DNA of 64,000 bases from Bacillota bacterium (GCA_029570375.1 JAKPXB010000040.1:27464-91463), one strand, 5' to 3'; shown: positions 22,560 to 54,474, numbered from the stretch's first letter. Numbers and translations are program-made. Notes: generated from the sequence alone by a model not told the origin.

Positions 22560-22600
22560 GGTTAACCCTCCTAAGTATGACCTGTTAGAATGAATATTCC

Positions 22601-22619: not shown

Positions 22620-22683
22620 ACTCAGTTAATCTATCTTCCGCGCCTATGGCAATCGCGATCTGATAACCTGCCTGTGCGGCTCT

Positions 22684-23559
22684 CTAGGATCCCAGATTGG
22701 CGAGAATAGGCACTATAACCAGAATCAGAATCCCGATAAACATCACGCTGATGGGGATCAGAAGCTTGGCGGCAGCGCGCTCTCCCTCACGGCGTACAAG
22801 CTGCTTCTTGAGCTGCCACACCTCGCGGCTCTGCTCCTGCAGCGCGAGCGTCAGATCGCGGCTTCCCTTGGTCATTCCCTGGATGATGGTCGAGGTAAAT
22901 TTCTTCACCTCCGGAATGACACAACGCCTGCCAAACTCGTAAATGGCGTCAATCTCCGCGACGCCGTTCCGGATGTCTTCGACGGCTATCCGCATCTCTT
23001 CGTAGAAAATCCCCTCTCCCCCGAACGCCACTTTCTCCCATGCTTCGCGCAGAATCATCCCCGCGTTGGTGAGCAGCGCGAGCTTTGAAACGACCTCCGC
23101 GAAATCGCGAAGCAGTTCATCGGAACGCGCCTGTATCCTCTTGCTCGCGAGGTTGCCGTAGTAATAGTAGGCGAGCCCCGCGAATACAAAGAAGACAACC
23201 ATAATCATCAGATCCTGCGCCAGCCCGTAAAAGATAAAGGCAAGGACAAAAAGAGTCATGGCGAACGTCATCTGCTGGGAGTGCGTGACGCGCAGGTAAT
23301 ATTCCGAATACTTTTCTCCGTAGAGAACATTCAGCTCCTGCCGGAGTTTTCTGTCACTTTTTGATTTGTACGTGTACCCGATCAGGTTGAGCAGAGCGTA
23401 CCCCGTACCGTAGATGTCTTTAAGGCGAAACTCTTTCTCTGATAAGACGGAGAACATGCTCTGGTACTGCGCGCCTTTCAGAAATAATACGATCCAGCCG
23501 ATGACAAGCAGCGTGCCCACCGCCATGATGGCTATCTGGAATATTTCAAGACCGAACAT
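22684..23559 (-). CDS. tadC: Type II secretion system F-family inner-membrane platform protein (TadC-like)
   Basis: Start set to ATG 23559 (gaggagggggagag RBS), 14 nt after the upstream stop. It has N- and C-terminal TM helices flanking a cytoplasmic helical domain, as in TadB/TadC. Confidence 0.8.
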   Translation of the reverse strand: MFGLEIFQIAIMAVGTLLVIGWIVLFLKGAQYQSMFSVLSEKEFRLKDIYGTGYALLNLIGYTYKSKSDRKLRQELNVLYGEKYSEYYLRVTHSQQMTFAMTLFVLAFIFYGLAQDLMIMVVFFVFAGLAYYYYGNLASKRIQARSDELLRDFAEVVSKLALLTNAGMILREAWEKVAFGGEGIFYEEMRIAVEDIRNGVAEIDAIYEFGRRCVIPEVKKFTSTIIQGMTKGSRDLTLALQEQSREVWQLKKQLVRREGERAAAKLLIPISVMFIGILILVIVPILANLGS

Positions 23560-23573
23560 CTCTCCCCCTCCTC

Positions 23574-24431
23574 TCACATCTTGATATTGAGCACTGACTT
23601 GCCGACAAAGTACGCGATAACGAAGATGATAATCGCGACTGTCGACGCCATTATGCCGGCAGGTGTTGTAAAGTTCTTGGCAAAGTCGGGACTCATCCCT
23701 TTGATGATCGCGACAATCGCGATCGGCATTATGGACATGAGGTTCTGCTCCGTTTTGTTCGCGGTCAGAAGCGTCTCAATATCCTCTTCGATTTCCATCT
23801 TGTCGCTTAGAATCGCGTGTGTATTCCGGATCACATCCTTAATATTGCCCCCCTTGCGGTAGCTGATACTGAAGACGCCGGCAAAGCTTGACACATCTCC
23901 GATATCGCTCCTGGCGCCGAAATCCTCCAGCAGTTCTTCCACGGGAATATTGTTCTGCACCCCGGACAGAATCAACTCCAGCTCGCGCAGGATATAGGCG
24001 CTGCTGTCGTACTGAACCTTAAGGTCTTCGTATACAGCGTAAAACGAATCCGTCACATTCTTTCCGGCGCTGAGCGATGTTGTCAGCCCATCCAGCATAT
24101 CCCGAAACTGCTTGCTCAGCTGGCGCTTGCGCTTGCTGATGATCGCTTTCGTCCGGGCGGGAATAAAGAGTTTGGCGGAAATCAGACCGACAATGGACGG
24201 AATCAGGATATTCAGGATATACGTAACCACCGTCGGCTGACCGAATTCGTCTTTGCCGAGTCCGCCGTAGAACAGGTAACCGACCGCGGCTCCGACGATA
24301 AAAGCGAGCAGCGCGTACCCGATCTTTTCCCACCGTTTCATGTAATAGACTCTGTAATTCATCGTCGGCATGTTCGTCGCGGACAAAAAAAACTCCGGTT
24401 CAGGCGGCGCTTTTGTTTTTTTCTTGAACAT
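23574..24431 (-). CDS. tadB: Type II secretion system F-family platform protein (TadB-like)
   Basis: 285 aa with the same T2SS-F architecture as the downstream paralogue. It lies immediately downstream of the CpaF ATPase. Confidence 0.8.
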   Translation of the reverse strand: MFKKKTKAPPEPEFFLSATNMPTMNYRVYYMKRWEKIGYALLAFIVGAAVGYLFYGGLGKDEFGQPTVVTYILNILIPSIVGLISAKLFIPARTKAIISKRKRQLSKQFRDMLDGLTTSLSAGKNVTDSFYAVYEDLKVQYDSSAYILRELELILSGVQNNIPVEELLEDFGARSDIGDVSSFAGVFSISYRKGGNIKDVIRNTHAILSDKMEIEEDIETLLTANKTEQNLMSIMPIAIVAIIKGMSPDFAKNFTTPAGIMASTVAIIIFVIAYFVGKSVLNIKM

Positions 24432-24523
24432 AGGCGGTATACCTCTTCACTCTTCCGGCCCGATCACGCCTCCCGCGGTCAGTACGGGGATCTTCACGCG
24501 GGAAATGGCCGCCCGTCAGGAGA

Positions 24524-25762
24524 TCAAATCACATGCTTGAATCCCGCGACCTGCAGCTTCTGCGTGTTTTTCATCTCATTGCCTGTGCGCGTCAGCTTCC
24601 CCGATACGCGCGACAGCGTGCTGTTCTCGTCCTCGAGAAACACATAGAGCGGGTTCAGCCGGATGCGCCCGTCTTCATACCCGAGGACTTCGGTGATTTC
24701 CATCGTGCGGCGCGATTTGTCGCGCAGGCGCGAGAGATGGATGATGATGTCCACCGCTGAGGCAATCTGCTGACGGATCGCTTCAAGCGGCAGCCCCGCC
24801 GCGCCCTGGAGAACCATCGTCTCCAACCGGCTCAGCATATCCTCCGTGCTGTTTGCGTGTCCTGTTGAGATCGAACCGTCATGGCCGGTATTCATCGCCT
24901 GCAGCATATCGAGGGCCTCGCCGCCGCGGACCTCACCGACGACAATCCGCTCCGGCCGCATGCGCAGAGAGGACTTGATGAGATCGCGGATGGTGATCTG
25001 CCCGACTCCCGCGACGTTCGCGGTACGCGTCTCCAGCCTGACGAGATTATCGATATTCTTGATTTGAAGCTCCGCCGAGTCCTCGATCGTGATGACGCGC
25101 TCGTCTCTCGGGATATAGTTTGACAGCGCATTCAGGAAAGTCGTCTTTCCGGAGCCGGTGCCCCCGCTGATAAAGATGTTGTACTTGGCTCTGACGAGGA
25201 TCTCCAGCTGTTCCGCGATCTCTTTTGTCAGCGATCCGTATTCGATCAGCTTCTCCATCGTCATAGGCGTTTTGGAAAACTTCCGGATGGTCACCGTCGG
25301 GCCGCAGAGCGCGATCGGAGGCAGAACGACATTGACGCGCGACCCGTCGGGCAGACGCGTGTCGCAGATGGGGTTCGCCTGGTTGACTTCGCGGCCGGCA
25401 AGACCGACAATGCGCTGGATGATGTCCTCCAGGCGCCGCTGGCTCTCAAATTTCTTATCGAGTTTGAACAGGCGGCCGTTCTGTTCAATGAAGATATTGT
25501 CCGTCCCGTTGATCATCACCTCTGTGATTGTGTCGTCCTTGATGATGCTGTCGAGGAGACCGAACCCCCGGATCGAACTGAATACCTGTTCCACGATCGA
25601 CACACGCTGCTCGATGGAGCAGTATTCCTGCCTGAGCCATTCGCCCGCGAGCTTCTCCACGTGCTGCATCAGCTCGTCGTCATCGAGTTCGCTCAGAGGC
25701 AGGTTCTCGCCGATATAGCGTTTGATCGCGGCGATCACCTCTTGTTCTCTTTCAAAAGTCAT
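24524..25762 (-). CDS. cpaF: CpaF/TadA-family secretion ATPase
   Basis: 412 aa. It has Walker A GGTGSGKTT, an Asp box ...RVITIEDSAEL..., Walker B/His box ...RIVVGEVRGGEA...TGHDGSISTGHAN. Confidence 0.92.
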   Translation of the reverse strand: MTFEREQEVIAAIKRYIGENLPLSELDDDELMQHVEKLAGEWLRQEYCSIEQRVSIVEQVFSSIRGFGLLDSIIKDDTITEVMINGTDNIFIEQNGRLFKLDKKFESQRRLEDIIQRIVGLAGREVNQANPICDTRLPDGSRVNVVLPPIALCGPTVTIRKFSKTPMTMEKLIEYGSLTKEIAEQLEILVRAKYNIFISGGTGSGKTTFLNALSNYIPRDERVITIEDSAELQIKNIDNLVRLETRTANVAGVGQITIRDLIKSSLRMRPERIVVGEVRGGEALDMLQAMNTGHDGSISTGHANSTEDMLSRLETMVLQGAAGLPLEAIRQQIASAVDIIIHLSRLRDKSRRTMEITEVLGYEDGRIRLNPLYVFLEDENSTLSRVSGKLTRTGNEMKNTQKLQVAGFKHVI

Positions 25763-25766
25763 AAGA

Positions 25767-26834
25767 TCACCTCAGGATCGGTTGAAAAAGATTCATCGAC
25801 ACAAGCTGTTCCACCACTTCTCTCTCCGGCGCGTGGGCGTAACGCGGCGCTCCTCCCAGAAGCTTGAGGTCAATTCCCTCGACAGCGCGGGAAACTTTGT
25901 TGCTGAACTTGTTGTAAACCAGGTACAGCTTGCTCAGAATGCGCAGATCGCGCTGTTCGTCAATCATCCGGAGCGCTTCGAAAGCGCGCACCATCTTCGT
26001 GTTCGCGACCGCCATGCCATCGCTGACAAGCACAATCGCGTACGCTTCCTGAAACGCGTGAAGCATCCGGCCGTCGAGTGCGAAATCCATGTCCAGAATG
26101 ATGTGATCGTAATGACCGCCGGCGCGCAGCTCTTTCAGCATCCTTTTCAGGTCTTCTTCCGTGAGCTCCTGAACGTCCAGCGCGATCGGCGGACTTTCAA
26201 AGAAGAACACACCGTCCGCCGATTCGCGAACAGCGCTCTCCAGTTTCATCGGCAGGTTGAGTTTTCCGCTCTTCAATACAAACAGGACATCGCTCAGCGT
26301 CTCCTGGCCGGAACCGGTAAAGAAGACATCCGACCGGCCGAAGAGTTCCAGGTTCAGATACAGAACGCGCCGTCCTGCCCGCGCGAGAGTCAGCGCGTAG
26401 GCGGCTGCCATCGTTGAGCTTCCTACGCCCCCGGCCGGCGAGGCGAACACGCTGATAAGCGCGCTCGAAGTACCGTCCGGCTTAAAGCCGGTGATGTCAC
26501 TCGATTTCTCTGCGTAAACGCTGAGAATCTGTTTGTAAATACTGTCAGCTTTCTGAAACTTCGATATGGCCGGTTGATCACGCAGCGATGCCACCAGCGG
26601 ATCGTCAACGAAATAAGCGAAACCACATCGGGCGGGGATCCTGTCGAGGTCAATCTCGAAGGATTCATCCGCCAGAAAAACATCAATCCGTGCTTCTTTC
26701 AGCTCACTGAGCGCCTTGTCCAGCTGCGTGAAAGAATAGATTTCGAGCTTGTCCCAATAGCGCGCGTTAAAAGCCGCCGCAAGCCTCTCCAGATAGCCCG
26801 GATCGCGATCTAAAATTGCCAGTTTAATCTTCAT
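25767..26834 (-). CDS. TadZ/CpaE-like protein: receiver-like N-domain plus atypical ParA/MinD-like domain
   Basis: Start set to ATG 26834 (MKIKLAILDRD...). The P-loop position reads SPAGGVGSST, with no lysines. It is the first gene of the locus, 4 nt upstream of cpaF. Confidence 0.75.
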   Translation of the reverse strand: MKIKLAILDRDPGYLERLAAAFNARYWDKLEIYSFTQLDKALSELKEARIDVFLADESFEIDLDRIPARCGFAYFVDDPLVASLRDQPAISKFQKADSIYKQILSVYAEKSSDITGFKPDGTSSALISVFASPAGGVGSSTMAAAYALTLARAGRRVLYLNLELFGRSDVFFTGSGQETLSDVLFVLKSGKLNLPMKLESAVRESADGVFFFESPPIALDVQELTEEDLKRMLKELRAGGHYDHIILDMDFALDGRMLHAFQEAYAIVLVSDGMAVANTKMVRAFEALRMIDEQRDLRILSKLYLVYNKFSNKVSRAVEGIDLKLLGGAPRYAHAPEREVVEQLVSMNLFQPILR

Positions 26835-26906
26835 AATCGTCACCCTTTGCTGCCGCCTCACCGCTCGCCGGTCCACGGCTTTTGAGCTGATCTTTATTCA
26901 TGTTTT

Positions 26907-28461: not shown

Positions 28462-30150
28462 TCATTCTTTAAAGAACAGCGAGAACAGACCGCTCCGTCC
28501 GGTAACTCCAAGCTTTCTGTACGCGTTGCCGGCATGGAATTTAACGGTTTCCACCGATATATTCATTTCGCTCGCGCATTGCTTATACAGAAAGCCCTGC
28601 AGAATGTAGTAAATCACCTGTGTTTCTCGTTTTGTCAGGCCTTTCTCCGCGATGAGCATCTGATATTGCTCCTGCAAAACTTCCCGAAAAACAGCCGGCT
28701 GCCCCGCCCTCGGGGCGCTATCCCCACGGTCCGTTCCGGCATTATTTTCCGCATGCCCGCTATCCGCCGGACTTTCCGCCGGATCACAATCGGCAGTACT
28801 TTCCGCCGGGCTGCCATACGCCGGCCATACGCCGGAGGCGGCAGCCGAACCGGGATGCCAGACCCCGCCCTCTCCAACCGGAACGGCCTGCTCCGGGGGC
28901 TCCCCGGACAACTGCGCGCCGAGAGGCAGCGCTGCTTCGGTCGGTCCGGCTGTATCTCCGGCAGAGATGGAACTCCAACTCCACGGGCCTTTCTTCGGCA
29001 TCAACAGGCGCGCGTAATGCGGCGCCATCATTAAAAAGATCAGGAAGAGCAGCAGCGAGACCCCTGTCGACAGATAGAACCGCGCGTCAGGGTAATAAGA
29101 GGTAAGAAAACCCGGAATCATATAGATAAGGAAAGAGGCATTCAGCGCGATGATCAGAACGCGTTTGAAGAATTTGAAATCAGCCTGCCGGCTCATAATT
29201 TCCCCGAGCAGAGCGTAAGACGCAATAAATCCGATCGACTCAAACGCGTGGAAAAACCACGACATCACCTGCACGGCCGCCGGGGTATCCGGCAGCGCAA
29301 ACACATTGGCCAGCAGCATGAACAGAAAAAACAAATAACACATATGCCAGATACTGTATTTCGACCGAAAATACAGAAAGAGGCTCAGGATAAGCACAAG
29401 CATGCCGATGGCGCCGTTAAACCGCATCGCGGAAGGACTGGCGGCTTCCCTCGTGTAAGTGTAGAAAATTTCAATCGTCTTGTGCGCGAAAAAGAAATAC
29501 AGCAGAAGACCGACCTGCATGCGCCTGTCGGAGCTCGGCGAACCGGAAACAATCTTCACGCGCGCATCCTCCGATCGATAGAAAAAAGTACAAATCAAAG
29601 TCACAAAAACAAGGATGAGCATGTATAGATAACTAAACGATTGCAGGATACCGCGGACGCTGTACAGAAACTGAAATAAAACCGCCAGCAGAATCGTTAT
29701 CGACGCGCCTAGAAATCGCTCTGACCGATTCAGCGCGTAGATGAAGAAGTAAGTGGCGATGGCGGCGCACCCGCCAAAAAAGAACGCAAACGCGAAAGCG
29801 AAATAATAAGACGCGTGCGGATCTTTCCACCCCAGCCACAGAAAGAAAAGAATAAAGGCCGCCACTGCGTAACCCCGGGCGTACAGAGGCATTCTCCTGC
29901 GGCTCGTAAACGCAAAAAGCATACCCGCTCCTATGCAGTAGCACGCCCCCATCCAGGACATGGCGTCAAGCCTCAGCAGCCGGTAAGAGGAACCGAGAAC
30001 CCTATCCTGCACATTGATAAACAGAGGTGCGAGTGAGAAAATCAGCATGTAAGGAAGATGTCTGGCGCGGACATCTGATAAAGACTGCTTAAATTCAGTA
30101 TACAGCAGTCTTATCAGGGAGTTGATCCAGTTTAAGATGGTGAACCGCAT
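28462..30150 (-). CDS. Polytopic-membrane LuxR-family transcriptional regulator (about 10 or more TM helices, Pro-rich linker, C-terminal HTH)
   Basis: Start re-set to ATG 30150, because the ORF-track extension overlaps the upstream amidotransferase gene. The C-terminus TKRETQVIYYILQGFLYKQCASEMNISVETVKFHAGNAYRKLGV is a LuxR/GerE-type HTH. The N-terminal ~400 aa is very hydrophobic. Confidence 0.8.
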   Translation of the reverse strand: MRFTILNWINSLIRLLYTEFKQSLSDVRARHLPYMLIFSLAPLFINVQDRVLGSSYRLLRLDAMSWMGACYCIGAGMLFAFTSRRRMPLYARGYAVAAFILFFLWLGWKDPHASYYFAFAFAFFFGGCAAIATYFFIYALNRSERFLGASITILLAVLFQFLYSVRGILQSFSYLYMLILVFVTLICTFFYRSEDARVKIVSGSPSSDRRMQVGLLLYFFFAHKTIEIFYTYTREAASPSAMRFNGAIGMLVLILSLFLYFRSKYSIWHMCYLFFLFMLLANVFALPDTPAAVQVMSWFFHAFESIGFIASYALLGEIMSRQADFKFFKRVLIIALNASFLIYMIPGFLTSYYPDARFYLSTGVSLLLFLIFLMMAPHYARLLMPKKGPWSWSSISAGDTAGPTEAALPLGAQLSGEPPEQAVPVGEGGVWHPGSAAASGVWPAYGSPAESTADCDPAESPADSGHAENNAGTDRGDSAPRAGQPAVFREVLQEQYQMLIAEKGLTKRETQVIYYILQGFLYKQCASEMNISVETVKFHAGNAYRKLGVTGRSGLFSLFFKE

Positions 30151-30229
30151 CAGCGCCGCCACCTCCCTCCTTAAATACGGTCGATGTGATCCGGTATATA
30201 TTCTGTCAGATCTGCCCGCATTGAGAAGT

Positions 30230-30955
30230 TCAGCGATTGCAGAGACCGACAAATGTCTTGAACAGCTTCGCCATACCGGGAACCGTCGCGGCGAGCTCTT
30301 CGGGATGCCATTGAACGCCGATAATCGGCGGCATATCACAGCCGTCTGCCTCGACGGCTTCGATAACACCATCGCGGCTTCGCGCCGTCACCCGAAGACT
30401 GCCGGCCAGCTTTTTGATCGCCTGATGATGCCAGGAATTCACGAGCGCCTTGTCACCAAGTACTTCGTAGAGATAGGTGTCAGGGACAATATCAATATGG
30501 TGCGTCACCGCCTGGCGGCTGGCTTTTTGCAGATGCTGAATCGTAAATTCAGGCAGATCGCCTATGTCCTGGTAGAGTGTCCCCCCCAGCGCGACATTGA
30601 TCAGCTGAAGACCGCGGCAGACACCGAAAACGGGGTACGAACGCTCGAGCGCCATCCGGAATAGCAGCAGTTCAAACGCGTCGCGCTGTGGCGACTGTTT
30701 CCCCAGCCCTTTTACAGGCTCCTCTCCGAAAAGCAGCGGTGAAATGTCATCGCCCCCTGTCAGAATCACGCCTCCGCAGATATCCAGAATGGAGCTGATC
30801 ACCTCGCGGCCATCCGTCACGGGTATGATCAGGGGAACGGCGCCCGCTCTGTGTACCGCACTGACATACGCGTCATTGACGTAATGCCGGTTTGAACCCT
30901 CCCAATGCTTGTCCTGATCGGCGATGAGAGCGCCGGACAACCCTACTCGAAACAT
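30230..30955 (-). CDS. Class-I glutamine amidotransferase-like hydrolase (peptidase C26 / PuuD-like gamma-glutamyl hydrolase family)
   Basis: Start set to ATG 30955 (gaggaggg RBS). It has the nucleophile elbow FGVCRGLQ and a C-terminal ...GVQWHPE motif. Confidence 0.8.
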   Translation of the reverse strand: MFRVGLSGALIADQDKHWEGSNRHYVNDAYVSAVHRAGAVPLIIPVTDGREVISSILDICGGVILTGGDDISPLLFGEEPVKGLGKQSPQRDAFELLLFRMALERSYPVFGVCRGLQLINVALGGTLYQDIGDLPEFTIQHLQKASRQAVTHHIDIVPDTYLYEVLGDKALVNSWHHQAIKKLAGSLRVTARSRDGVIEAVEADGCDMPPIIGVQWHPEELAATVPGMAKLFKTFVGLCNR

Positions 30956-31248
30956 ACAGCCCTCCTCGAACATCCCTCATCCCCTCACCAACAGACAAGT
31001 GCGTACCAAACAGCGCCATCCTGATGAGGTAAATTATTTCTGATGATTGGTGATCCTTCCGGATAACCCCATTATATACAAATATGGCGCTTTCTGAATC
31101 ATCCGCTCCCGCGAAAGGTGACTTCTTCCGATAATCATTTCCTGTACCGATCTTCCTGATCCGGACGGGATCAGGCGGCCTGGCGGCTGATAAGCTGACG
31201 GCATCATCCTTCGTAGCCCCGGAACCAGGCGATCATTCGGAAACAGAA

Positions 31249-31287
31249 AGAGGATGTCGCTCCCCTGACCGGGGACAGACATCCTCT
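31249..31287 (-). terminator. Rho-independent terminator of the xdhC / ABC-importer operon
   Basis: Arms agaggatgtc (31249-31258) / gacatcctct (31278-31287) with further inner pairing. On the minus strand a T-rich tttctgtttcc follows. It lies 27 nt after the binding-protein stop. Confidence 0.65.
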
Positions 31288-31313: not shown

Positions 31314-32486
31314 TTACTTGAAAGTTCCTGCGAGAATTTCAGCGAGGGCCGCGTCGTCTACCTCGATGTGGTAGAACAATTTAAAGAAATCTTTGACCTG
31401 TTTTTCCGGAGAGTCTTTATAAATCTCAGGATAGAAGGTCGCTCCCAGCCAGCGCACACCGAGATACCGGTTAATCGACGGCGGACTTCCCATAAAGCCA
31501 TAGGGTGCGGACGGAATAATAATTATCCTGTTTTCTTTCATAGCGGGGAGCGCGCTCCAGGCCGGATCTTTTTTCATTTCCTCCGCCAGGGCGACACTTC
31601 CGATGAGGATATAATCGGGATCCCACTGAACAATCTGCTCCATAGAGACTTCCGTACCGCCGCCTTTTGACGAAGCCTCTACATCCGCGACATTGACAAC
31701 GGGAATATAGTCGAGCAGTTCACTGTGGAATGACCCGACAGCATTTGTGTTCAACCCAAGCTCACCCATAGCCCAGTACACTTTGACGATTTTGTCTTTG
31801 GGGATTTCCGCTTTTGCCTTATCACAAAGCGCGAGCGTTTCTTCACAGTATTTAGCAAGCGGTTCGGTTCTCTCGCTGTCGCCGATCATTTCCCCCAGAT
31901 CGCGATATGTTTTTGGCATACCGGCAAAAGTCGCTTCGATAAAGATAGTTGGCGTATTGATCTGCTGCTGCATGCCATCCATATCTTCCTTGATTGTCTT
32001 CTTCGCTTCCCCGATATCGACAATCGCTTCTGTGTTGGCCGCGAGGACGGCCTCCAGATTAAAGTCGCTATTTTTGCCGTAAAACTGACCAAAGGTAGGC
32101 AGATCCTTGATCTTGTCACCCAGCAGTTTGATCTGCTCTTCGCTCATCTTGCTCGCCATCCCGCACAACAGTTCAGGAGCCGCCGTATAGAGAACAATCT
32201 GTGCCAGTGGACCGGACGGCGCGATTCTCATCAATTTCTCCGGAATCAGGACTTCCCTTCCAACGGAGTCTTTGAACACCCGGCCTGCCGGTTCAACGGG
32301 CATAGTCGAAGTTGCGTCGGGAGAAGCGGGCGCCGTCGTCATGTTGTCGGCCGGTTCCTTGCTCTCCATTACCGTTGGCGCAGACGGTTCCGCCGGCTCC
32401 TTCGGGGCACACCCCGCAAACAGCATCGACGTGATCAGAACCAGCGCCAGTAGGAACGACACTTGCTTAAACATCTTCTTATTCAT
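31314..32486 (-). CDS. ABC transporter substrate-binding lipoprotein, cluster-A/BtuF-FhuD type (siderophore, haem or corrinoid class)
   Basis: 390 aa with the lipobox LFAGC and a Pro/Ala/Thr-rich tether. The body resembles periplasmic-binding-protein family 2. RBS is aaggagga. Confidence 0.8.
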   Translation of the reverse strand: MNKKMFKQVSFLLALVLITSMLFAGCAPKEPAEPSAPTVMESKEPADNMTTAPASPDATSTMPVEPAGRVFKDSVGREVLIPEKLMRIAPSGPLAQIVLYTAAPELLCGMASKMSEEQIKLLGDKIKDLPTFGQFYGKNSDFNLEAVLAANTEAIVDIGEAKKTIKEDMDGMQQQINTPTIFIEATFAGMPKTYRDLGEMIGDSERTEPLAKYCEETLALCDKAKAEIPKDKIVKVYWAMGELGLNTNAVGSFHSELLDYIPVVNVADVEASSKGGGTEVSMEQIVQWDPDYILIGSVALAEEMKKDPAWSALPAMKENRIIIIPSAPYGFMGSPPSINRYLGVRWLGATFYPEIYKDSPEKQVKDFFKLFYHIEVDDAALAEILAGTFK

Positions 32487-32597: not shown

Positions 32598-33419
32598 CTA
32601 TCCGGCACACTTAATCATCCCGTTTACATCAGGCAGTACAGTCACCGCGCCTGTTTTTACACTTTTCTCCAGTTGGATAGGAACACGGTAGACGTGCGAT
32701 AACAGCGCCTCGGATAAGACATCCTCGGGCGGTCCGAACGCCCGGGCTGACCCGCCATCGATGAGCAGTACATCATCGGCGAATAAAAATACATGTTGTG
32801 GATTATGCGTGGAAAAAAGTACGAGATACCCCGCATCCGCGAGTGAGCGAATCTGTTCGAGAACCCGGATCTGGTTTCCATAGTCAAGGCTGGCCGTCGG
32901 TTCATCCATGATGAGGATAGGGGCATCCTGAGCGACAGCACGCGCGATCAGGACAAGCTGCTGTTCTCCCCCGGAGAGCTGGTCGAAGAGGCGGTTTCCA
33001 AACTGCTCGATGCGGAGCAGCTTCATCGCTTCCGATGCCTTGATTTTTTCACGCTTCCCCGGCTGCGCAAACATACCAAATGAAGCGGTTGTTCCCATCA
33101 GCACCATTTCCGCCACGGTGAACTGAAAGGCGCCCGACTGATTCTGGGGAATATACGCCATCTGCATGGCGCGCGCACGGTTTGACAGATCGCCGATATG
33201 GCACCCGTTAATCTTGATAACCCCGCGCGCAAGCGGGAGCACACCGAGAATCAGTTTGAAAAGCGTAGACTTACCGGCGCCGTTCGCGCCGAGCACACCG
33301 ACGACGCGTCCGCAGGGAACCTCAAAAGTGAGGTTCTTCAGCACGTCATTTTCCCTGTAACGGAAATACACTTCCTGTACCTGGAGGCCGTCGGTTACCG
33401 GTTGCTTTACTTTAATCAT
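32598..33419 (-). CDS. ABC transporter ATP-binding protein (FecE/BtuD type)
   Basis: 273 aa. It has Walker A GANGAGKST, signature LSGGEQQ and Walker B ILIMDEP. The start overlaps the permease stop. Confidence 0.9.
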   Translation of the reverse strand: MIKVKQPVTDGLQVQEVYFRYRENDVLKNLTFEVPCGRVVGVLGANGAGKSTLFKLILGVLPLARGVIKINGCHIGDLSNRARAMQMAYIPQNQSGAFQFTVAEMVLMGTTASFGMFAQPGKREKIKASEAMKLLRIEQFGNRLFDQLSGGEQQLVLIARAVAQDAPILIMDEPTASLDYGNQIRVLEQIRSLADAGYLVLFSTHNPQHVFLFADDVLLIDGGSARAFGPPEDVLSEALLSHVYRVPIQLEKSVKTGAVTVLPDVNGMIKCAG

Positions 33420-35140
33420 CCCGCCATCCCCTTTCTTCCTTCGCGGAGAATGAGGAAAACAAAGAACGGAGCGCCAATAAAAGCGGTCAGAATGCCGAGA
33501 GGAATGCCGCTAGTTGTCGCCCTCCGCGCTATATTATCGACAAACAGGAGGAACCCCGCCCCCACAAGCGCCGACGCGGGCAGGGATACGCGGTTGTCGC
33601 TGCCGACGATCATTCTCGCAATATGCGGAACAACAAGGCCGATCCATCCGATCACGCCGCTGACTGAAACGCTGGTTGCGGTGATTAGCGTAGCCGATAC
33701 TACCATGAGCATTCTGATCAGGCGCGTGTGAACACCCATTGTCGCCGCGGCTTCTTCGCCGAGCGCCAGCAGGTTGAGCTGCCACCGCAGCAGGAGAATG
33801 ACGAAAATACCGAGCAGAATCGGAGGCGCCGCGAATCCGAGCGTTTGCAGGCGCGCGGAATTCAACGATCCCATGAGCCAGTATGTAATCGCCGGAAGCT
33901 GGTTCGAGGGATCCGCCGTGTATTTGATCAGGGACAGACCGGCTGAAAATAACGAACTGACAACTATTCCGGTTAAAACGAGTGACAGGAGTTTGTTTCT
34001 CTTGACAAAAGAGGCGATAAAAAGCACAAGCGCAATGGAGATCAGCCCGAACAGGAACGATACGAGCGTAATTCCCGTCGAAGCGAAACCCGCCAGTATC
34101 GCAAGCGCCGCCCCAAAACTGGCTCCGGACGATGCCCCCAGCACATCGGGAGAAACCATCGGATTCTGAAATACACCCTGAAAGGTATGACCGGCCACAG
34201 AGAGGCCGGAACCTACCAGGACAGCGAGAGCAATGCGCGGCGGCCTCACATTGATGAGAACGGTCGAGATGGCTTCCTCAAAAACTTCACCTGTCCGGAA
34301 GAGCTGACTCCAAAAAAACCGGATAATGGTGACAGGACTTACGAAATACCACCCGATGGCAAATGAAATGATGATCAGAGCGATAAGGAGAGCGCCCATA
34401 ACGCCGAATCGAAGCGGGAGGTGTTTTTTCTGCCCACTGTTAAGGAGCGGTTCAGGAATCTCTTCCAGCTGACGCGAGATCGTTCCGTCGCTTTCAAGCA
34501 TCACTGTTGTGACCGCAGGATGCGTCATAATCGCGTGGCGCCGCTCCCGGAGAACAGCCTTTTTGTCTTCCGTTATATCCATTCGAGTTAAGGTCTGCTC
34601 GAGGGCTGTTTCATGTTTCCATACCATGATGAGAGGTTTTGACACATCATTCAGAAGCTCCATCACACGATTAAACACGCGGTCATCGAGGAGTTCCACC
34701 CCCCCGAGTTCGTCCATCACAATCACATCACCATGGCGCTCAAGGAGAGGGAACGCCCGTTCGGTGAAAAGCTCGACATCAAACCGGCTGTCGCCTCCTT
34801 CGGAAACGAGGAAGCATTTCTCATCGGGGAATGCCTTTCCGTTAGAATGGCGGATGGTCAACAGCCCCGTGTCCCGCTGCTTCCCGGCGGGAACATGCAG
34901 AAACCCTGTCTTCTGCTCCCGCCTGTTGACATGGCGTATGGTCATGTAACCGGAGGCTTTCAGGGAAGCGTCCTCCAGATACCGCTGCACGAAGGTCGAC
35001 TTACCGCTTCCGATCACTCCCGTGACGAGAAGGTGCCCTTTGGGCGTGCCGTTCTCCGCAAATAAGGACGATTGAGCCAACATAATAAGACCGCGCTCGT
35101 TGGCCGGGTATAGAAAGGAATTTTCTTTCCGATCAGCCAT
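33416..35140 (-). CDS. Fusion protein: N-terminal THEP1-like NTPase domain (about 230 aa) plus a FecCD/BtuC-family ABC permease
   Basis: 574 aa. P-loop GVIGSGKST (34994-35020), the pattern ...SGYMTIRHVNRREQKTGF... and Walker B-like VIVMDELGGVEL fit the NTPase_1/THEP1 family. Residues from about 240 to 574 are a typical FecCD permease (...LGASSGASFGAALAI..., ...GIPLGILTAFIGAPFFVFLI...). Confidence 0.75.
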   Translation of the reverse strand: MADRKENSFLYPANERGLIMLAQSSLFAENGTPKGHLLVTGVIGSGKSTFVQRYLEDASLKASGYMTIRHVNRREQKTGFLHVPAGKQRDTGLLTIRHSNGKAFPDEKCFLVSEGGDSRFDVELFTERAFPLLERHGDVIVMDELGGVELLDDRVFNRVMELLNDVSKPLIMVWKHETALEQTLTRMDITEDKKAVLRERRHAIMTHPAVTTVMLESDGTISRQLEEIPEPLLNSGQKKHLPLRFGVMGALLIALIIISFAIGWYFVSPVTIIRFFWSQLFRTGEVFEEAISTVLINVRPPRIALAVLVGSGLSVAGHTFQGVFQNPMVSPDVLGASSGASFGAALAILAGFASTGITLVSFLFGLISIALVLFIASFVKRNKLLSLVLTGIVVSSLFSAGLSLIKYTADPSNQLPAITYWLMGSLNSARLQTLGFAAPPILLGIFVILLLRWQLNLLALGEEAAATMGVHTRLIRMLMVVSATLITATSVSVSGVIGWIGLVVPHIARMIVGSDNRVSLPASALVGAGFLLFVDNIARRATTSGIPLGILTAFIGAPFFVFLILREGRKGMAG

Positions 35141-35183
35141 GAAAATTTCCGCTTTCCCTGTTCTTCAAGCCACAGGACAGCGT

Positions 35184-36290
35184 TCAACCATGCAATATCC
35201 CCGGGCGCTTCGGCTCCAGTTTCCCTGAACGGACTGCGATCATCTGCGCGGCGATGCTGATGGATATCTCTTCCGGTGTCTCACCGCCGATATCAAGTCC
35301 GATAGGTGAAATAGCGCGCTCCAGTGATGCCGCCGAATGTCCGCGTTCCATCAGTATGCCGTCCACTGTCTTTATCTTATGTCTGCTGCCGATGACACCG
35401 ATATAGCGGGCGTCCGTTTTCAGTACCTGGTCTTCCACATCGAGATCGTTCTTGTGCCCCCGCGTCATAATGCAGACAAAATCATCGGGACCGATGGCCA
35501 CGGACCGGTCGATATGATCGAGATCACACATCCTCACATCATAAGCTCCGGGGAACAGCTCCGGGGCGACAAATTCCTCCCGGTCGTCGAGCACAACAAC
35601 CGCGAAATGCGCGTGCGCCAGAACGGGGACAAGGGCCTGCGCGACATGGCCGCCTCCGAAAATATAAACCACTCCCGGTACTACGAGTTCTTCGACATAG
35701 AAAGTATGGCCGCATTTACTCACGGAATGGCCGCGCTGACAGAGAGCGCGCTTATCGTCGAGGAGGGCGCGCGTACAGGGATGTTCAGCGGGGAAGCCTC
35801 TGAACGACCAGCCTTCTGAGGTGAAATCGGGATCGGCGGGGTTCGTCCCTGCCGGAGCGGTAAAAAGAGCAAGTCCCAGCTGATCCCGCTCGCTGACATC
35901 GGTGACGAGCCAGCTCGGCTGTCTCTCCCGGATGGCGTCGCGCGCCTCCTTTACAATGGACAGGAGTTCCCCGTTATTTCCATTGAGGTAGAGGTAGTGA
36001 ACCGTCGCGCTTCCGCCGCAGATCATGCCGATATCCTCAATTTGATTTTTGTTCAGGATAAACTGATGGATATCCGAGCGCTTCTGCTCAAGGGCAGCTC
36101 TGGCAATATCGATCGACCGGTACTCCACCGCGCCTCCGCCAATCGTACCCGCCAGCCGTCCCGTCCGGTCAACCAGCATCCGCGCGCCTTCACCTCTGGG
36201 TGTCGCGCCTGAGCTCGCCGTGACAGTCGCAAGAACGGTATCTTCGCCTCTTTCAAGTGATTCCTGAAGACTCTTAAAAATAAGATCCAT
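35184..36290 (-). CDS. xdhC: XdhC/CoxI-family molybdenum-cofactor insertion/maturation accessory protein
   Basis: 368 aa. The N-terminal ...GEDTVLATVTASSGATPRGEGARMLV... is XdhC_CoxI-like, and the C-terminal Rossmann-like FGGGHVAQALVPVLAHAHFAVVVLDDREEF is XdhC_C-like. Confidence 0.8.
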   Translation of the reverse strand: MDLIFKSLQESLERGEDTVLATVTASSGATPRGEGARMLVDRTGRLAGTIGGGAVEYRSIDIARAALEQKRSDIHQFILNKNQIEDIGMICGGSATVHYLYLNGNNGELLSIVKEARDAIRERQPSWLVTDVSERDQLGLALFTAPAGTNPADPDFTSEGWSFRGFPAEHPCTRALLDDKRALCQRGHSVSKCGHTFYVEELVVPGVVYIFGGGHVAQALVPVLAHAHFAVVVLDDREEFVAPELFPGAYDVRMCDLDHIDRSVAIGPDDFVCIMTRGHKNDLDVEDQVLKTDARYIGVIGSRHKIKTVDGILMERGHSAASLERAISPIGLDIGGETPEEISISIAAQMIAVRSGKLEPKRPGILHG

Positions 36291-36391
36291 ACACTCTCCT
36301 CTTTGGCCGGATATCAGACAGGTCTGCCTGAACGGCAGGCTATGGAATTTCTTCTCAGCTGCACACAGACAGCCTGAATACTCTATGAACC

Positions 36392-36421
36392 ATATTACAC
36401 CCGATTGGTATATTAATACAA
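36392..36421 (-). promoter_or_regulatory. Candidate promoter of the xdhC operon
   Basis: On the minus strand, TTGTAT, an 18-nt spacer ending in TG, then TAATAT, about 100 nt upstream of ATG 36290. Confidence 0.45.
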
Positions 36422-36519
36422 CTCACTTCAGACAGTATGAGGCTTGTGATTTTCCCCGGCGGTAACGGAAGGAGACTTGCGATAACCGTGTTAAATGGAA
36501 GGTGCTCTTCACTCCGCCC

Positions 36520-39931: not shown

Positions 39932-41956
39932 ATGAATAACGCTGCTATTGAAAAATGCATGACAGTCAGATTGGATGGACCGCTGCCCCCCGCACCGGTT
40001 TTCGCTCAAGGGATCCGGCGCGCGCCGCGCCGTGAGGCGCACCTGTCAGAGAGCGAACGGGCCACCGCACTGAAAAACGCTCTGCGCTATATTCCCGAAC
40101 AATATCACGAGACGCTCGCTCCTGAGTTTCTGAAAGAGCTGGACGAGCACGGCAAGATATACGGCTACCGGTTCCGGCCGGAGGGACGCATCTACGGGCG
40201 CCCGATCGACGAATACAGAGGCAACTGCATCGAAGGCAGAGCCTTTCAGGTCATGATCGACAACAACCTCGATTTTGAGGTCGCACTCTACCCGTACGAG
40301 CTGGTCACCTACGGCGAGACGGGCGCTGTCTGCCAGAACTGGATGCAGTACCGGCTGATCAAGAAATACCTGGAGCTCCTGACAAGTGAACAGACGCTGG
40401 TCCTGTTTTCCGGGCACCCGGTCGGCCTCTTTCACAGCCCGCCCTCCGCGCCCCGCGTCATGCTGACGAACGGCCTTCTGGTCGGCCAGTACGACAATCT
40501 TGCGGATTACAACCGCGCGGCGGCGATGGGCGTCTCGAACTACGGACAGATGACGGCAGGCGGATGGATGTACATCGGGCCGCAGGGCATCGTCCACGGA
40601 ACGTACAATACGCTCCTCAACGCCGGGCGCCAGCACCTCGGCGTCCCCTACGACAGCAACCTCGCCGGCCACCTCTTTGTCAGCTCCGGCCTCGGCGGCA
40701 TGTCGGGCGCGCAGGGAAAAGCTTGTGTCATCGCCGGTGGGGCCGCCATCATCGCGGAAGTCGACAGGTCGCGCATTGAGACGCGCTTCAGCCAGGGCTG
40801 GGTCGATGAAGTCGTGCATACCTGTGAGGCCGCTTTCGAACGCGCGCACGACGCGATGGACAGGAAGATACCGCGGGCGGTGGCTTTCCACGGCAACATC
40901 GTCGACCTCCTGGAGTACGCGATTGCGAACGACATCTCCATTGGGCTTCTATCCGACCAGACCTCCTGCCATGAACCCTACACGGGCGGCTATTGCCCGC
41001 AGGGGCTGACCTTCGAAGAGCGGACGGCTATGCTGGATCGTGACCCCGAACAGTTCCGCGCGCTTGTAAACAAATCATTGGCCGCGCATTTTCGGGCGAT
41101 CAAAGCGCTAACCGCCAAAGGCACGTTTTTCTTCGATTACGGCAACTCCTTTATGAAGGCTATTTTCGACGCGGGGGTCAGAGAAATCTCGAAGAACGGC
41201 GAGAATGACCGCGATGGGTTCATCTGGCCGTCCTATGTCGAAGATATCATGGGCCCGCTTCTGTTCGATTACGGCTATGGGCCTTTCCGCTGGGTCTGCC
41301 TCTCGGGGAAAGACGAAGACCTGCGCGCGACAGATGAGGCCGCGATGTCCTGTATCGACCCGGAGCGCCGCTATCAGGACCGCGATAACTACAACTGGAT
41401 CAGGGACGCCGAGAAGAACAAGCTCGTTGTCGGGACGAAAGCGCGCATTCTCTACAGCGACGCGTTCGGGCGCCTGTCGATCGCGCTGAAGATGAACGCT
41501 CTCGTCCGCGAAGGGGTGATCGGTCCCGTTATGATCGGCCGCGACCACCACGACACGGGCGGCACCGATTCGCCGTTCCGTGAGACATCCAACATCCGTG
41601 ACGGCAGCAACGTGACAGCTGATATGGCGACATCTGTCTTCGCGGGCAACGCCGCGCGCGGCATGAGCCTCTGCGCTTTACACAACGGCGGCGGGACAGG
41701 CATCGGGAAAGCGATTAACGGCGGCTTTGGCTGCGTGCTCGACGGATCCGAGCGCATCGACAATGTTCTCCGGAACGCTGTCCTCTGGGATGTCATGGCC
41801 GGCGTAGCGCGCCGCTCCTGGGCGCGAAACGACCACGCCATTGAAACCGCGATGGAATACAATCTGGCCATGGCCGGTTCCGACGCACTGACGCTGCCAT
41901 ATATCGCGGATGACGCGCTGATCGACTGTGTACTGAAAGAAAGCCCACGCGGCTGA
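39932..41956 (+). CDS. hutU: Urocanate hydratase (long form)
   Basis: 674 aa. ...YPYELVTYGETG..., ...GQMTAGGWMYIGPQGIVHGT..., ...GLGGMSGAQ... and ...IGRDHHD... are conserved urocanase segments. Confidence 0.92.
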   Translation: MNNAAIEKCMTVRLDGPLPPAPVFAQGIRRAPRREAHLSESERATALKNALRYIPEQYHETLAPEFLKELDEHGKIYGYRFRPEGRIYGRPIDEYRGNCIEGRAFQVMIDNNLDFEVALYPYELVTYGETGAVCQNWMQYRLIKKYLELLTSEQTLVLFSGHPVGLFHSPPSAPRVMLTNGLLVGQYDNLADYNRAAAMGVSNYGQMTAGGWMYIGPQGIVHGTYNTLLNAGRQHLGVPYDSNLAGHLFVSSGLGGMSGAQGKACVIAGGAAIIAEVDRSRIETRFSQGWVDEVVHTCEAAFERAHDAMDRKIPRAVAFHGNIVDLLEYAIANDISIGLLSDQTSCHEPYTGGYCPQGLTFEERTAMLDRDPEQFRALVNKSLAAHFRAIKALTAKGTFFFDYGNSFMKAIFDAGVREISKNGENDRDGFIWPSYVEDIMGPLLFDYGYGPFRWVCLSGKDEDLRATDEAAMSCIDPERRYQDRDNYNWIRDAEKNKLVVGTKARILYSDAFGRLSIALKMNALVREGVIGPVMIGRDHHDTGGTDSPFRETSNIRDGSNVTADMATSVFAGNAARGMSLCALHNGGGTGIGKAINGGFGCVLDGSERIDNVLRNAVLWDVMAGVARRSWARNDHAIETAMEYNLAMAGSDALTLPYIADDALIDCVLKESPRG

Positions 41957-42049
41957 AAAGATTGAACCGCTCCGGACGCTTTCCGTCACGGACGGCGGCC
42001 GGCCCTACCAAAACATCCGAAACTATTGTGTGTTGAGAAAGGAAGACAC

Positions 42050-42955
42050 ATGTCCCCATTAAACCAGATCGTCGAATGCGTCCCGAATTTCAGTGAAGGC
42101 CGAGACAAAGAGAAGATAGAGAAAATCGTCGCCCCGCTCAAGGGACGCGAGGGCGTCCGCCTCGTCAATTACGAGGGCGACGCCGATTACAACCGCCTCG
42201 TCGTGACCGTTCTCGGCGCACCGCAGGCGGTAAAAGAAGCGGTGCTTGACGCCATCGGCGCCGCCACCGAACTGATCGACCTCAATCACCACACCGGCGA
42301 GCATCTGCGCATGGGCGCGACCGATGTCGTCCCGTTCATTCCTATCCGGAACATGACGACCGAGGACGCGGTCGCGCTCTCGAAAGAGACGGCGGAAGAA
42401 ATCAACAAACGCTTCGGCATCCCCGTTTTCCTCTATGAAGATTCCGCGACGAGCCCCGAGCGCGTGAACCTCGCCCGCATCCGCAAAGGCCAGTTCGAGG
42501 GCATGCCGGAGAAACTCCTGCTCCCCGAATGGGGGCCGGACTACGGCGAGCGCCGGATTCACCCGACGGCCGGCGTCACGGCTGTCGGCGCGCGCTTCCC
42601 TCTTGTCGCGTACAACATCGACCTCGGTACGGACAACATCGATATCGCGAACAAAATCGCGCGCGCCATCCGCCAGTCGAGCGGCGGCTTTCAGTACATC
42701 AAGGCCGGCGGCGTCGAACTGAAAGAGAAAGGCATCGTCCAGGTAACGATGAACATCACCGACTACCGCAAAAATCCGATCTACCGCGTCTTTGAGACCG
42801 TCAGGATGGAAGCGGCGCGCTACGGCGTCGCGGTACTCGGCAGCGAAATTATCGGGCTTTCGCCCCTCGCCGCGCTGACGCAGTCGCTCGAGTATTACAT
42901 CGGGCTTCACGGTTTCGACGAGGAAAAAATCATTGAGCACTGGCTTCTGGGATAA
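42050..42955 (+). CDS. ftcD: Glutamate formimidoyltransferase
   Basis: Start set to ATG 42050 (gaaaggaag RBS). The N-terminal IVECVPNFSEGRD motif and a length of about 300 aa fit the FTCD N- plus subdomain. Confidence 0.88.
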   Translation: MSPLNQIVECVPNFSEGRDKEKIEKIVAPLKGREGVRLVNYEGDADYNRLVVTVLGAPQAVKEAVLDAIGAATELIDLNHHTGEHLRMGATDVVPFIPIRNMTTEDAVALSKETAEEINKRFGIPVFLYEDSATSPERVNLARIRKGQFEGMPEKLLLPEWGPDYGERRIHPTAGVTAVGARFPLVAYNIDLGTDNIDIANKIARAIRQSSGGFQYIKAGGVELKEKGIVQVTMNITDYRKNPIYRVFETVRMEAARYGVAVLGSEIIGLSPLAALTQSLEYYIGLHGFDEEKIIEHWLLG

Positions 42956-43068
42956 AAAGACGGTTCTTTTCGGCGGATAACGCAGAATAAACGAACAGAA
43001 CAGCCTGTACCGGTTAATCGCCCGGCATTAATGGCCGGCGCGACGGCCGGGGATGTGTGGAGGGATCG

Positions 43069-44325
43069 ATGAGCTGGCTTTTGATTGAACACGCGGATGA
43101 ACTCGTTACCGCGAAAGGAAAGGCCGCGCGCCGGGGAAGCGAGATGAACGCGCTCCTCGTCATTCAGGACGGAGCCGTCCTGACGAAAGACGACAGGATC
43201 GCCGCGGCGGGGCCGACCGGCGCGGTCGCCGCACAGCTTGACGCGCTTGTGCGCGAAGGCGAAACGGTCACGCGGATCGACGCCGCCGGCAAAACCGTCA
43301 TTCCCGGGTTTGTCGATCCTCATACGCACTTTATCTTCGGCGGTTACCGCGAAGAAGAATTCAACCGCCGGCTCGCGGGCGCTACCTACATGGAGATCAT
43401 GAAGATGGGCGGCGGCATCGCCTCGACAAACCGCGCTACGAAAGAGGCGTCCGAAGAGGAACTCTACGCCGCCGGTTTTCACCGCATGGAGCGCATGCTC
43501 GACCTCGGCATCACGACCGTCGAGGGCAAGACGGGCTACGGCGAAGATACGAAGACGGAAGACAAGATGCTCCGCGTCATGGAGCGCCTCAACCGCGACC
43601 ATCCGGTCGATATCGCCATGACTTACATGGGAGCGCATTCCGTCCCCCCGCGGTACAAAGGAAGGTCGGGCGACTATGTCGACTACCTGATCGCCGAAGG
43701 CCTGCCGATGGCGCGGGGACGCGCCGCGTTCTGCGACGTTTTCACGGAAGAGGGCGTTTTCTCTCTCGAAGAATCGGAGAAACTCCTTCTGGCGGCCCGC
43801 GCGGAGGGATTCAAACTGAAGATGCATGCCGACGAAATCGTGCCGCTCGGCGGCGCCGGCCTCGCGGCGAAACTCGGCGCGACGAGCGCCGATCATCTGC
43901 TCAAGGCCTCCGACGACGACCTGCTCGCGATGCGCGGCGCCGGCGTCGTCGCGACGCTCCTTCCCTGCACGGCATTCAGTCTCCGCGAACCTTACGCGCG
44001 CGGGCGTTTCATGATCGACAGCGGCCTCGCCGTCGCGCTCGGCACCGACTTCAACCCGGGCAGTTGCTACACGCAGTCCGTCCCGCTGATGATCGCGCTT
44101 GCGACGATCTATATGAACATGACAATCGACGAAGCGCTCACCGCCGTCACGCTCAACGCCGCGGCCGCCATCGGACGCGCGGATTCCATCGGATCGCTCG
44201 AATCAGGAAAGCAGGCGGATATCGTCATACTCGACTGCCCCGGATATAAACACCTCTCCTATCATTTCGCGATGAATCTCGTGGAGACCGTGATCAAAGC
44301 GGGAGTCATCGTCAGGGGGAACTGA
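43069..44325 (+). CDS. hutI: Imidazolonepropionase
   Basis: It has the metal-binding GFVDPHTHFIFGG, ...KMHADE... and ...ALGTDFNPGS.... The start is ATG 43069 after ggaggg; GTG 43057 is an alternative. Confidence 0.9.
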   Translation: MSWLLIEHADELVTAKGKAARRGSEMNALLVIQDGAVLTKDDRIAAAGPTGAVAAQLDALVREGETVTRIDAAGKTVIPGFVDPHTHFIFGGYREEEFNRRLAGATYMEIMKMGGGIASTNRATKEASEEELYAAGFHRMERMLDLGITTVEGKTGYGEDTKTEDKMLRVMERLNRDHPVDIAMTYMGAHSVPPRYKGRSGDYVDYLIAEGLPMARGRAAFCDVFTEEGVFSLEESEKLLLAARAEGFKLKMHADEIVPLGGAGLAAKLGATSADHLLKASDDDLLAMRGAGVVATLLPCTAFSLREPYARGRFMIDSGLAVALGTDFNPGSCYTQSVPLMIALATIYMNMTIDEALTAVTLNAAAAIGRADSIGSLESGKQADIVILDCPGYKHLSYHFAMNLVETVIKAGVIVRGN

Positions 44326-52442: not shown

Positions 52443-52491
52443 GTTCGTCTGCCCTCTCCGAATCATTCTTCGACGTATTTCCTGCTTCTGA

Positions 52492-54473: not shown

Positions 54474-54474
54474 C

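Follow-up and report, generated by a model that had tools for sequence, protein, structure and literature searches.

A THEP1-like NTPase fused to the MolB-like permease of an xdhC-led transport operon: a possible coupling of molybdenum or tungsten uptake to cofactor maturation

Why does the permease of an ATP-binding cassette (ABC) importer, which has an ATPase subunit of its own, carry a second, non-ABC NTPase at its N-terminus, and why is the operon that encodes it led by the gene of a molybdenum-cofactor chaperone? The locus that raises this question lies in 64,000 nucleotides of DNA from a Bacillota bacterium (GCA_029570375.1 JAKPXB010000040.1:27464-91463), the whole of which is here called the window. 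All four genes of the operon are on the minus strand, in the order xdhC, NTPase-FecCD fusion, ABC ATPase and substrate-binding protein (SBP) lipoprotein, and an intrinsic terminator closes the set; a sequence-only reading of the window had already described this arrangement correctly. The answer that sequence comparison leads us to favour on balance is that the operon encodes a molybdenum or tungsten (Mo/W) importer coupled, by way of the tethered NTPase, to XdhC-dependent cofactor maturation. Three elements of this answer (the substrate, contact between XdhC and the NTPase, and the role of nucleoside triphosphate (NTP) hydrolysis) we infer.

The fusion of NTPase to permease is real and rare, and it is not an artefact. 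The identical 574-aa protein is found, in a constant gene order, in a JGI metagenome and again on contigs of three separate, unrelated SRA runs, and its presence in at least these four independent assemblies rules out, but for a negligible residual chance, that a sequencing or assembly frameshift has joined two genes. (What could be said for such a frameshift is that NTPase and permease are two separate genes with overlapping stop and start codons in the related cassettes of loci L038 and L042, and that one metagenome-assembled genome (MAG), at locus L029, 6968-8744, has its NTPase part broken across two reading frames, as a pseudogene or through an assembly error.) Against a frameshift, 16 further species-level loci that were searched with home-made hidden Markov models keep NTPase and FecCD in a single stop-free frame, as do ~28 protein clusters with PF03266 + PF01032, ranging from 80% down to 43% identity, that a database search for the same domain fusion returns. 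The linker, moreover, differs from species to species (~25 to ~90 residues among 18 orthologues, without conservation of sequence) while both domains stay conserved. It is disordered, with pLDDT (the per-residue confidence of prediction) <50 at residues 219-238 of the full-length AlphaFold2 model; this model, which draws on 18 sequences, is poor in its membrane part (mean pLDDT 66) and is used for the domain boundary and the linker only. The sequence-only reading had taken separate genes in orthologues as the sign of a sequencing error in the window. Separate genes do occur, in L038 and L042, but they reflect a genuine history of fusion and fission, to which we return below.

In a scan of one genome per species, ~20 MAGs have the fused form. 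They belong to a single Clostridia clade, bear the labels Mageeibacillus, Saccharofermentanales or Clostridiaceae, and derive mostly from anaerobic digesters. One further contig (JAAZHX010000191.1, locus L028), assigned to a Smithella MAG, holds xdhC and the start of a fusion whose N-domain is 68% identical to that of the window; most probably a contig from Clostridia has been binned there in error. The fused proteins are already in public databases, where they bear the name 'iron chelate uptake ABC transporter family permease', an annotation that is probably misleading.

The N-terminal domain of the fusion is a complete P-loop NTPase domain, as had been proposed. Its residues 36-193 match NTPase_1 (PF03266) at 45.9 bits, well above the cut-off of 23.9. 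The NCBIfam NTPase model PRK13695, on the other hand, scores 34.6 bits against a cut-off of 156, and the N-domain is for that reason classed by profile score as a member of the NTPase_1 family and not as an equivalog. Both Walker motifs recognized earlier, GVIGSGKST and VIVMDELGG, are present: residues G41, G44, G46, K47, S48, T49, D143, E144, G146 and G147 are invariant in the 18 fused orthologues (as are K175 and R200-R201), and the key Walker residues are nearly invariant in 50 relatives. The catalytic motifs are intact, and a member of this family would be expected to hydrolyse nucleoside triphosphates. The best PDB match by sequence is 1ye8 (THEP1 of Aquifex). The AlphaFold2 model of the N-domain (pLDDT 93.6) finds the same structure, 1YE8, as its best PDB match in Foldseek (E 1.3e-5, TM-score 0.49/0.61), with human NTPCR (2I3B) ranking 16th; as modelled, the fold is THEP1-like but divergent. 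The fusion has no match to MobB (PF03205) or YqeC (PF19842 / TIGR03172) at E <= 0.01 in Pfam and NCBIfam, and a word-index homology search using the N-domain alone returns no matches. The N-terminus of BtuC/MolB-type permeases is cytoplasmic in the established structures; the NTPase domain therefore lies in the cytoplasm, in two copies per transporter.

The nearest relatives of the N-domain tie it to XdhC. A HMMER profile search with the domain against 1.84 billion representatives yields 1143 hits at E <= 0.001. Among the 150 that are listed of these, most are stand-alone proteins of 175-230 aa, the only full-length FecCD fusions are P0021 and P0031, and P0121 seems to be a third one, truncated. 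The best four of the free-standing relatives each directly follow xdhC, the stop and start codons of the pair mostly overlapping: P0123 in L011; P0124 in L035 and L036, where it lies beside histidine-utilisation (hut) genes as in the window; P0126 in L038; and P0127 in L042. (Six contexts of free-standing NTPases were seen, those of these four and those of two distant relatives.) The NTPase belongs with XdhC, in an XdhC-associated subfamily, and so its ties are to cofactor maturation no less than to transport, a central point that the sequence-only reading had missed. The fused gene keeps the same neighbour, with xdhC directly upstream in 16 of the 17 genome loci that have enough upstream sequence and in every metagenome context examined. 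The window's XdhC matches the Pfam domains XdhC_CoxI (E 9.1e-20) and XdhC_C, a Rossmann domain (E 1e-38), and has PDB relatives in 2we7 (E 2.1e-22) and 3on5. XdhC is a cofactor-binding chaperone and not a metal-binding one (PMC2997495).

Proteins of signalling or regulation also appear to have taken up the NTPase_1 domain as a module. P0144 joins it to a helix-turn-helix (HTH) of ModE type, and in P0247 a MocA/YgfJ-like NTP transferase domain is added to these two. P0262 combines NTPase_1 with an HD phosphohydrolase domain (by Pfam match), P0159 has an HD-like motif that is discernible by eye and not matched by the Pfam HD model, and P0255 combines NTPase_1 with an Xre-type HTH.

That NTPase and permease are partners is suggested in a different way by their history. 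Bootstrapped neighbour-joining trees were made of the permease parts and the NTPase parts separately, with support counted as bipartitions per 100 replicates. The fused P0031 groups with the unfused L038/L042 proteins in both (96/100 for the permease, 81/100 for the NTPase), the fused clade of the window is joined by the unfused P0123 and P0124 (96/100), and all fused proteins together form one clade in 1/100 and 0/100 replicates. Since all-fused monophyly is so rarely recovered and P0031 lies with L038/L042, the fusion state is judged from these trees to have changed more than once, and that one pair of neighbours has fused or split repeatedly speaks for their working together.

What the importer carries is best approached through its permease. 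The FecCD match spans residues 251-566 of the fusion, and the best PDB match of this part is 2nq2_A (HI1471, MolB) at 238.7 bits, with 41% identity over 325 residues, followed by FhuB (181.9 bits), HmuU (175.6) and BtuC (129.5). In this ranking, which rests on solved structures only and not on a full phylogeny, the permease is closest to MolB; the NCBIfam models of BtuC, FecC and FhuB match the fusion as well, all far below their cut-offs. The transporter does have the ATPase that the sequence-only reading gave it, an ABC_tran gene product with intact Walker A, LSGGE, Walker B and H-loop, whose PDB matches are FhuC (128 bits) and HI1470, which is MolC (124 bits). The SBP matches 4pag (135 bits), 4ovk (58 bits) and 3psa/3psh, the structures of MolA (HI1472; 52 bits). 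MolA is the best characterised of these but matches through its C-terminal lobe only, 4PAG and 4OVK being uncharacterised structural-genomics proteins on which no literature was found. Motifs APSG, FYG, FIEA, GSFHSE, PYGF and PPSxNR are invariant in the SBPs of the cassette. MolBC-A, the transporter to which MolB belongs, is a type II importer of molybdate and tungstate (PMC4031551, PMC4245157). An xdhC gene beside an importer of the chelate/corrinoid class, which had been singled out as an oddity, is less strange when a molybdate/tungstate importer is itself of that class.

The nearest unfused relatives of the permease (55-57% identity) are encoded in plain FecCD-ATPase-SBP operons, one of them in the purine fermenter Clostridium cylindrosporum and the other in Cytobacillus. 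In the latter (L041), which holds the closest of these relatives, a DUF4213/DUF364 gene, L041:7039-7839, lies directly upstream of the permease gene, and the ATPase gene is separated from the SBP gene by one for a methyltransferase. DUF364 has been reported beside molybdate/tungstate uptake genes, and the genes cofit with nifH in Methanococcus include it along with modABC (PMC2954201; bioRxiv 10.1101/2024.03.05.583561).

Some related cassettes are set in clusters of molybdoenzyme type. The unfused cassette of the two lineages L038 and L042 has the order XdhC, NTPase, FecCD, ATPase, SBP. In L038 it stands behind YgfK, SsnA (above cut-off), a hydantoinase and guanine deaminase, and the same YgfK-SsnA-hydantoinase-guanine deaminase neighbours accompany L008, the most distant fused locus (43% identity). 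In L042 (1-6227) the genes 5' of the cassette encode a fragment of XdhA, YqeC and YqeB (each scoring above its cut-off), guanine deaminase, a 97-aa ModE-type HTH protein without Mop domain, and a methyltransferase. Such neighbours are marker genes of purine-catabolic clusters of selenium-dependent molybdenum hydroxylases (SDMH; PMC2276186). In L009 (332-1231), the region upstream of the cassette has, past the hut genes and at a distance of ~6 kb, genes for Se_S_carrier (PF11823) and a TusA domain. Similarity to MolB, the contexts with XdhC, xanthine dehydrogenase, YqeB/YqeC and the ModE-type HTH, and the presence of DUF364 in the sister group are three independent lines that all point to Mo/W rather than to iron or B12, and the simplest substrate is an oxyanion rather than a cofactor because the permease is closest to MolB of MolBC-A. 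The earlier suggestion of a metal-cofactor species in place of a siderophore thus stands in part: the system is most likely not a siderophore importer, but the metal-cofactor species yields to the oxyanion as the simplest choice.

If the operon indeed couples Mo/W import to XdhC, it might work as follows. The MolBC-A-like type II importer would take up a molybdenum or tungsten species, most simply molybdate or tungstate. It is co-transcribed with XdhC, which would hold the molybdenum cofactor (Moco) and insert it into xanthine-oxidase-family enzymes, and the fusion would put two copies of the NTPase, one per permease of the dimer, at the cytoplasmic mouth of the importer. There the NTPase might be a nucleotide-driven hand-off or insertion factor, acting between the importer and XdhC-bound cofactor. 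Alternatively, it might serve as a nucleotide switch through which the transporter (and, where the domain is fused to an HTH, transcription) is informed of the state of cofactor or metal, with a logic like that of the Mop/TOBE domains in ModE and ModC. In either case uptake would be coupled to cofactor maturation for hydroxylases of the xanthine-dehydrogenase type, which are often selenium-dependent.

A number of observations weigh against this scheme. We know of no step in the Moco pathway that requires a THEP1-type NTPase. The window, in all of its 64 kb, contains no molybdoenzyme gene and no gene of cofactor biosynthesis, and at one locus (L016, 5000-7000) the fused importer is kept with no xdhC upstream. 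The two distant NTPase_1 relatives (L033, L034) do not adjoin xdhC. The SBP is much closer to 4PAG (135 bits) than to MolA (52 bits), and the cassette motifs GSFHSE, PYGF and PPSxNR are common to 4PAG and absent from MolA. MolBC-A itself is only a low-affinity molybdate system (PMC4031551). Lastly, the window's XdhC falls below both NCBIfam equivalog cut-offs (295.7 bits against 350 for XdhC_rel_AOR, 148.6 against 161.6 for xanthine_xdhC), and is by these scores a family member.

We also know of no bacterial importer of Moco, which counts against the possibility, raised by the sequence-only reading and unlikely in our estimate, that the substrate is a pterin-type cofactor or precursor salvaged from the environment: molybdopterin, Moco, cyclic pyranopterin monophosphate (cPMP) or a Mo/W chelate, the labile molecule being taken over at the cytoplasmic face by the tethered NTPase and XdhC and passed to apo-enzymes. 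In its favour, the typical cargo of type II importers is a large cofactor, B12 or haem for example (PMC4245157), XdhC binds the cofactor rather than the metal (PMC2997495), and the SBP has pocket motifs unlike those of MolA. The transporters of this clade always have a cytoplasmic Rossmann-type protein in front of them, XdhC in the window and DUF364 in L041, and DUF364 has been proposed to act on pterin-like molecules (PMC2954201). Genes of Moco biosynthesis are absent from the window and from the fetched loci of the fused clade, but this absence covers stretches of 20 kb or less and not whole genomes. Against it, the position of the L042 cassette beside YqeB, YqeC and a ModE-type HTH gene fits maturation of the cofactor within the cell, and the permease is closest to MolB, whose narrow pathway suits an oxyanion (PMC4245157). 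It is likewise doubtful, and to a like degree, that the THEP1-like NTPase is a hitherto unrecognised part of the machinery for the molybdenum cofactor, an NTP-driven partner of XdhC docked at a dedicated type II importer which, instead of merely taking up free molybdate, imports a cofactor-type species (Moco, molybdopterin or a precursor) or gives the metal straight to chaperone-bound pterin; were this true, it would be the first bacterial route of cofactor salvage or channelling and the first physiological role for the THEP1/NTPCR family.

The database name of the fused protein speaks for an ordinary importer of iron chelates, haem or corrinoids, with xdhC and the NTPase as unrelated neighbours, and so do the matches to the BtuC, FecC and FhuB models (all far under cut-offs) and an ATPase that is equally close to FhuC and MolC. 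This explanation is made improbable by the linkage of xdhC, NTPase and importer across lineages at 43-58% identity, in overlapping genes, fused and unfused, and by the lead of MolB, which is the best structural relative by >55 bits. Neither a cobalamin or Moco riboswitch nor any other is found (Rfam has no family in the window at gathering threshold and none in the xdhC leader at E <= 10), and the neighbouring clusters of related loci concern molybdoenzymes and not iron or B12. More improbable still is a supply of selenium, in which a selenium oxyanion would be imported to furnish SDMH with their labile selenium cofactor, and XdhC and the NTPase would act in selenium insertion. The cassette does occur in clusters of SDMH type, with YgfK + SsnA (L008, L038) or YqeB + YqeC (L042), the Se_S_carrier and TusA genes are near the cassette of L009, and YqeB is often fused to XdhC-like domains (PMC2276186). 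However, none of the components resembles a selenium transporter that is known, molybdate and tungstate are what the closest characterised transporter binds, the window's clade is without selD, yqeB or yqeC nearby, and the links to DUF364 and the ModE-type HTH indicate Mo/W. Coupling of Mo/W uptake to XdhC-dependent maturation is the reading that we retain.

The genes of the importer overlap or adjoin in one operon (Table 1), the start of the ATPase gene overlapping the permease stop by 4 nt (33416-33419). The whole unit runs from ~31249 to ~36430; the segment 33416-36421 that the sequence-only reading had marked takes in xdhC and the fusion, together with some of the promoter region. The terminator hairpin has a z-score of -5.5, none of 200 shuffled sequences folds as well, and a T-rich tail lies behind it. 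The promoter-like block, with an 18-nt spacer between its two hexamers, is ~100 nt 5' of xdhC and is conserved in the alignment of orthologous loci L005, L007 and L009. We infer its promoter function from these features; a simple promoter scan did not pick it up. The block contains an imperfect dyad, TTGTATT..AATACAA, which may be an operator.

Table 1. Features of the xdhC operon, in coordinates of the window
Feature	Position	Strand	Basis
xdhC, XdhC-family molybdenum-cofactor chaperone, 368 aa	35184..36290	minus	Pfam XdhC_CoxI + XdhC_C
NTPase-permease fusion, single 574-aa open reading frame	33416-35140	minus	Pfam NTPase_1 + FecCD
Fusion N-domain, THEP1-like P-loop NTPase, residues 1-220	34481..35140	minus	NTPase_1 45.9 bits; 1ye8 best match
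Walker A of fusion N-domain	34994-35020	minus	GVIGSGKST, residues 41-49
Walker B of fusion N-domain	34700-34726	minus	VIVMDELGG, residues 139-147
Flexible linker, about residues 221-245, ending in basic residues KKH..R	34406..34480	minus	low pLDDT
FecCD/BtuC-type (type II) permease domain, MolB most similar	33416..34405	minus	FecCD 275.5 bits (Pfam)
ABC ATPase subunit, 273 aa	32598..33419	minus	Pfam ABC_tran 106.8 bits
Lipoprotein SBP, 390 aa, class III fold	31314..32486	minus	Peripla_BP_2 52.8 bits; LFAGC lipobox in translation
Intrinsic terminator of operon	31249..31287	minus	hairpin -32.4 kcal/mol + T-rich tail
Promoter-like block upstream of xdhC	36391..36430	minus	TTGTAT 36421-36416, TAATAT 36397-36392

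Just 3' of the terminator is a Peptidase_C26/GATase gene of gamma-glutamyl hydrolase type (30230-30973, minus), with a promoter-like site of its own at 31098-31071; it is syntenic in the window's clade (L001-L010) and absent from L008, L038 and L042. The hut genes near the xdhC operon (39932-44325, plus) encode urocanase, glutamate formiminotransferase and an imidazolonepropionase-type amidohydrolase, and the same set flanks the cassette in L005, L007, L009 and L035. Two other segments of the window deserve mention. An open reading frame of 636 aa at 28462-30372 (minus; 562-566 aa in public gene calls), with many predicted membrane helices and a C-terminal GerE/LuxR HTH, adjoins a Tad pilus cluster (21550-26876) and is an unusual membrane-embedded regulator. 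A block for nucleoside uptake and catabolism (51666-59831, minus) comprises a PNP_UDP_1 phosphorylase with an N-terminal extension of ~170 aa, a PfkB kinase, a Bmp/PnrA-type ABC transporter and cytidine deaminase.

The class of importer and the chaperone are both known already; what is new is the accessory NTPase that joins a MolBC-A-type importer and an XdhC chaperone. A search of full-text literature turned up no description of an NTPase_1-FecCD fusion, of a link between THEP1 and molybdenum cofactor or of one between THEP1 and XdhC. Accessory or regulatory domains are considered unverified for type II importers in a review (PMC4245157), and the fusion would provide a clear natural example, its permease incorporating a second NTPase that is not of the ABC kind. 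Members of the THEP1/NTPCR family occur from bacteria to humans as a conserved group, and the subfamily that gene order and fusion link to XdhC, MocA-like and ModE-type domains suggests a possible role in molybdenum-cofactor maturation. In gut and digester Clostridia, related cassettes lie within purine-degrading clusters of selenium-dependent hydroxylases; how SDMH-type enzymes mature is poorly understood, and their heterologous expression often fails (e.g. PMC11760930).

Of the known systems with which the operon can be compared, MolBC-A of Haemophilus influenzae (HI1470/HI1471/HI1472) likewise has three components, its permease being of FecCD type, its ATPase of ABC type and its binding protein of class III. 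The window's ATPase and SBP count MolC and MolA, respectively, among their top matches, and both systems are linked to molybdenum metabolism. In contrast, MolB has no N-terminal domain and the mol locus no xdhC, and the window's SBP is nearer to 4PAG and lacks the residues of MolA at the motifs conserved in its clade. (The SAO selenoprotein ABC system of Haft was also checked, and is unrelated.) The type I molybdate transporters and ModE share one accessory cytoplasmic domain (Mop/TOBE) between a Mo-related transporter and a ModE-type HTH regulator. In the window's family the domain shared in this manner is the NTPase, which is on the permease and in P0144 and P0247. It is, however, a P-loop NTPase rather than an oxyanion-binding beta-barrel, and it is placed on the N-terminus of the permease rather than the C-terminus of the ATPase.

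The window's XdhC has both Pfam domains of the XdhC/PaoD/PucA chaperones, and related loci place its gene in clusters of xanthine dehydrogenase or SDMH. Classical xdhC sits in the operon of its enzyme, with neither a transporter nor a P-loop NTPase as its partner (PMC2997495), whereas the xdhC of the window leads a transport operon. With THEP1 (Aquifex aq_1292) and human NTPCR the N-domain shares the Walker A motif and a Walker B motif of the form hhhhDExGxxE, THEP1 being its best match in sequence and in fold. Yet the identity to THEP1 is only 19%, and the N-domain has two additional elements, a strand-helix at its N-terminus and an inserted beta-hairpin. The domain is linked with XdhC and joined to a membrane protein, while THEP1 and NTPCR are soluble proteins for which we know of no established physiological role. 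Finally, MobB, the partner of MobA, and YqeC, the partner of YqeB, are also small P-loop proteins that stand beside a cofactor-maturation protein or are fused to it. MobA-MobB fusions occur, and P0247, with its MocA-like domain and NTPase, mirrors them. The N-domain, however, has no profile match to MobB or YqeC, and in L042 yqeC is a separate gene beside the cassette, so that the NTPase is not a substitute for YqeC.

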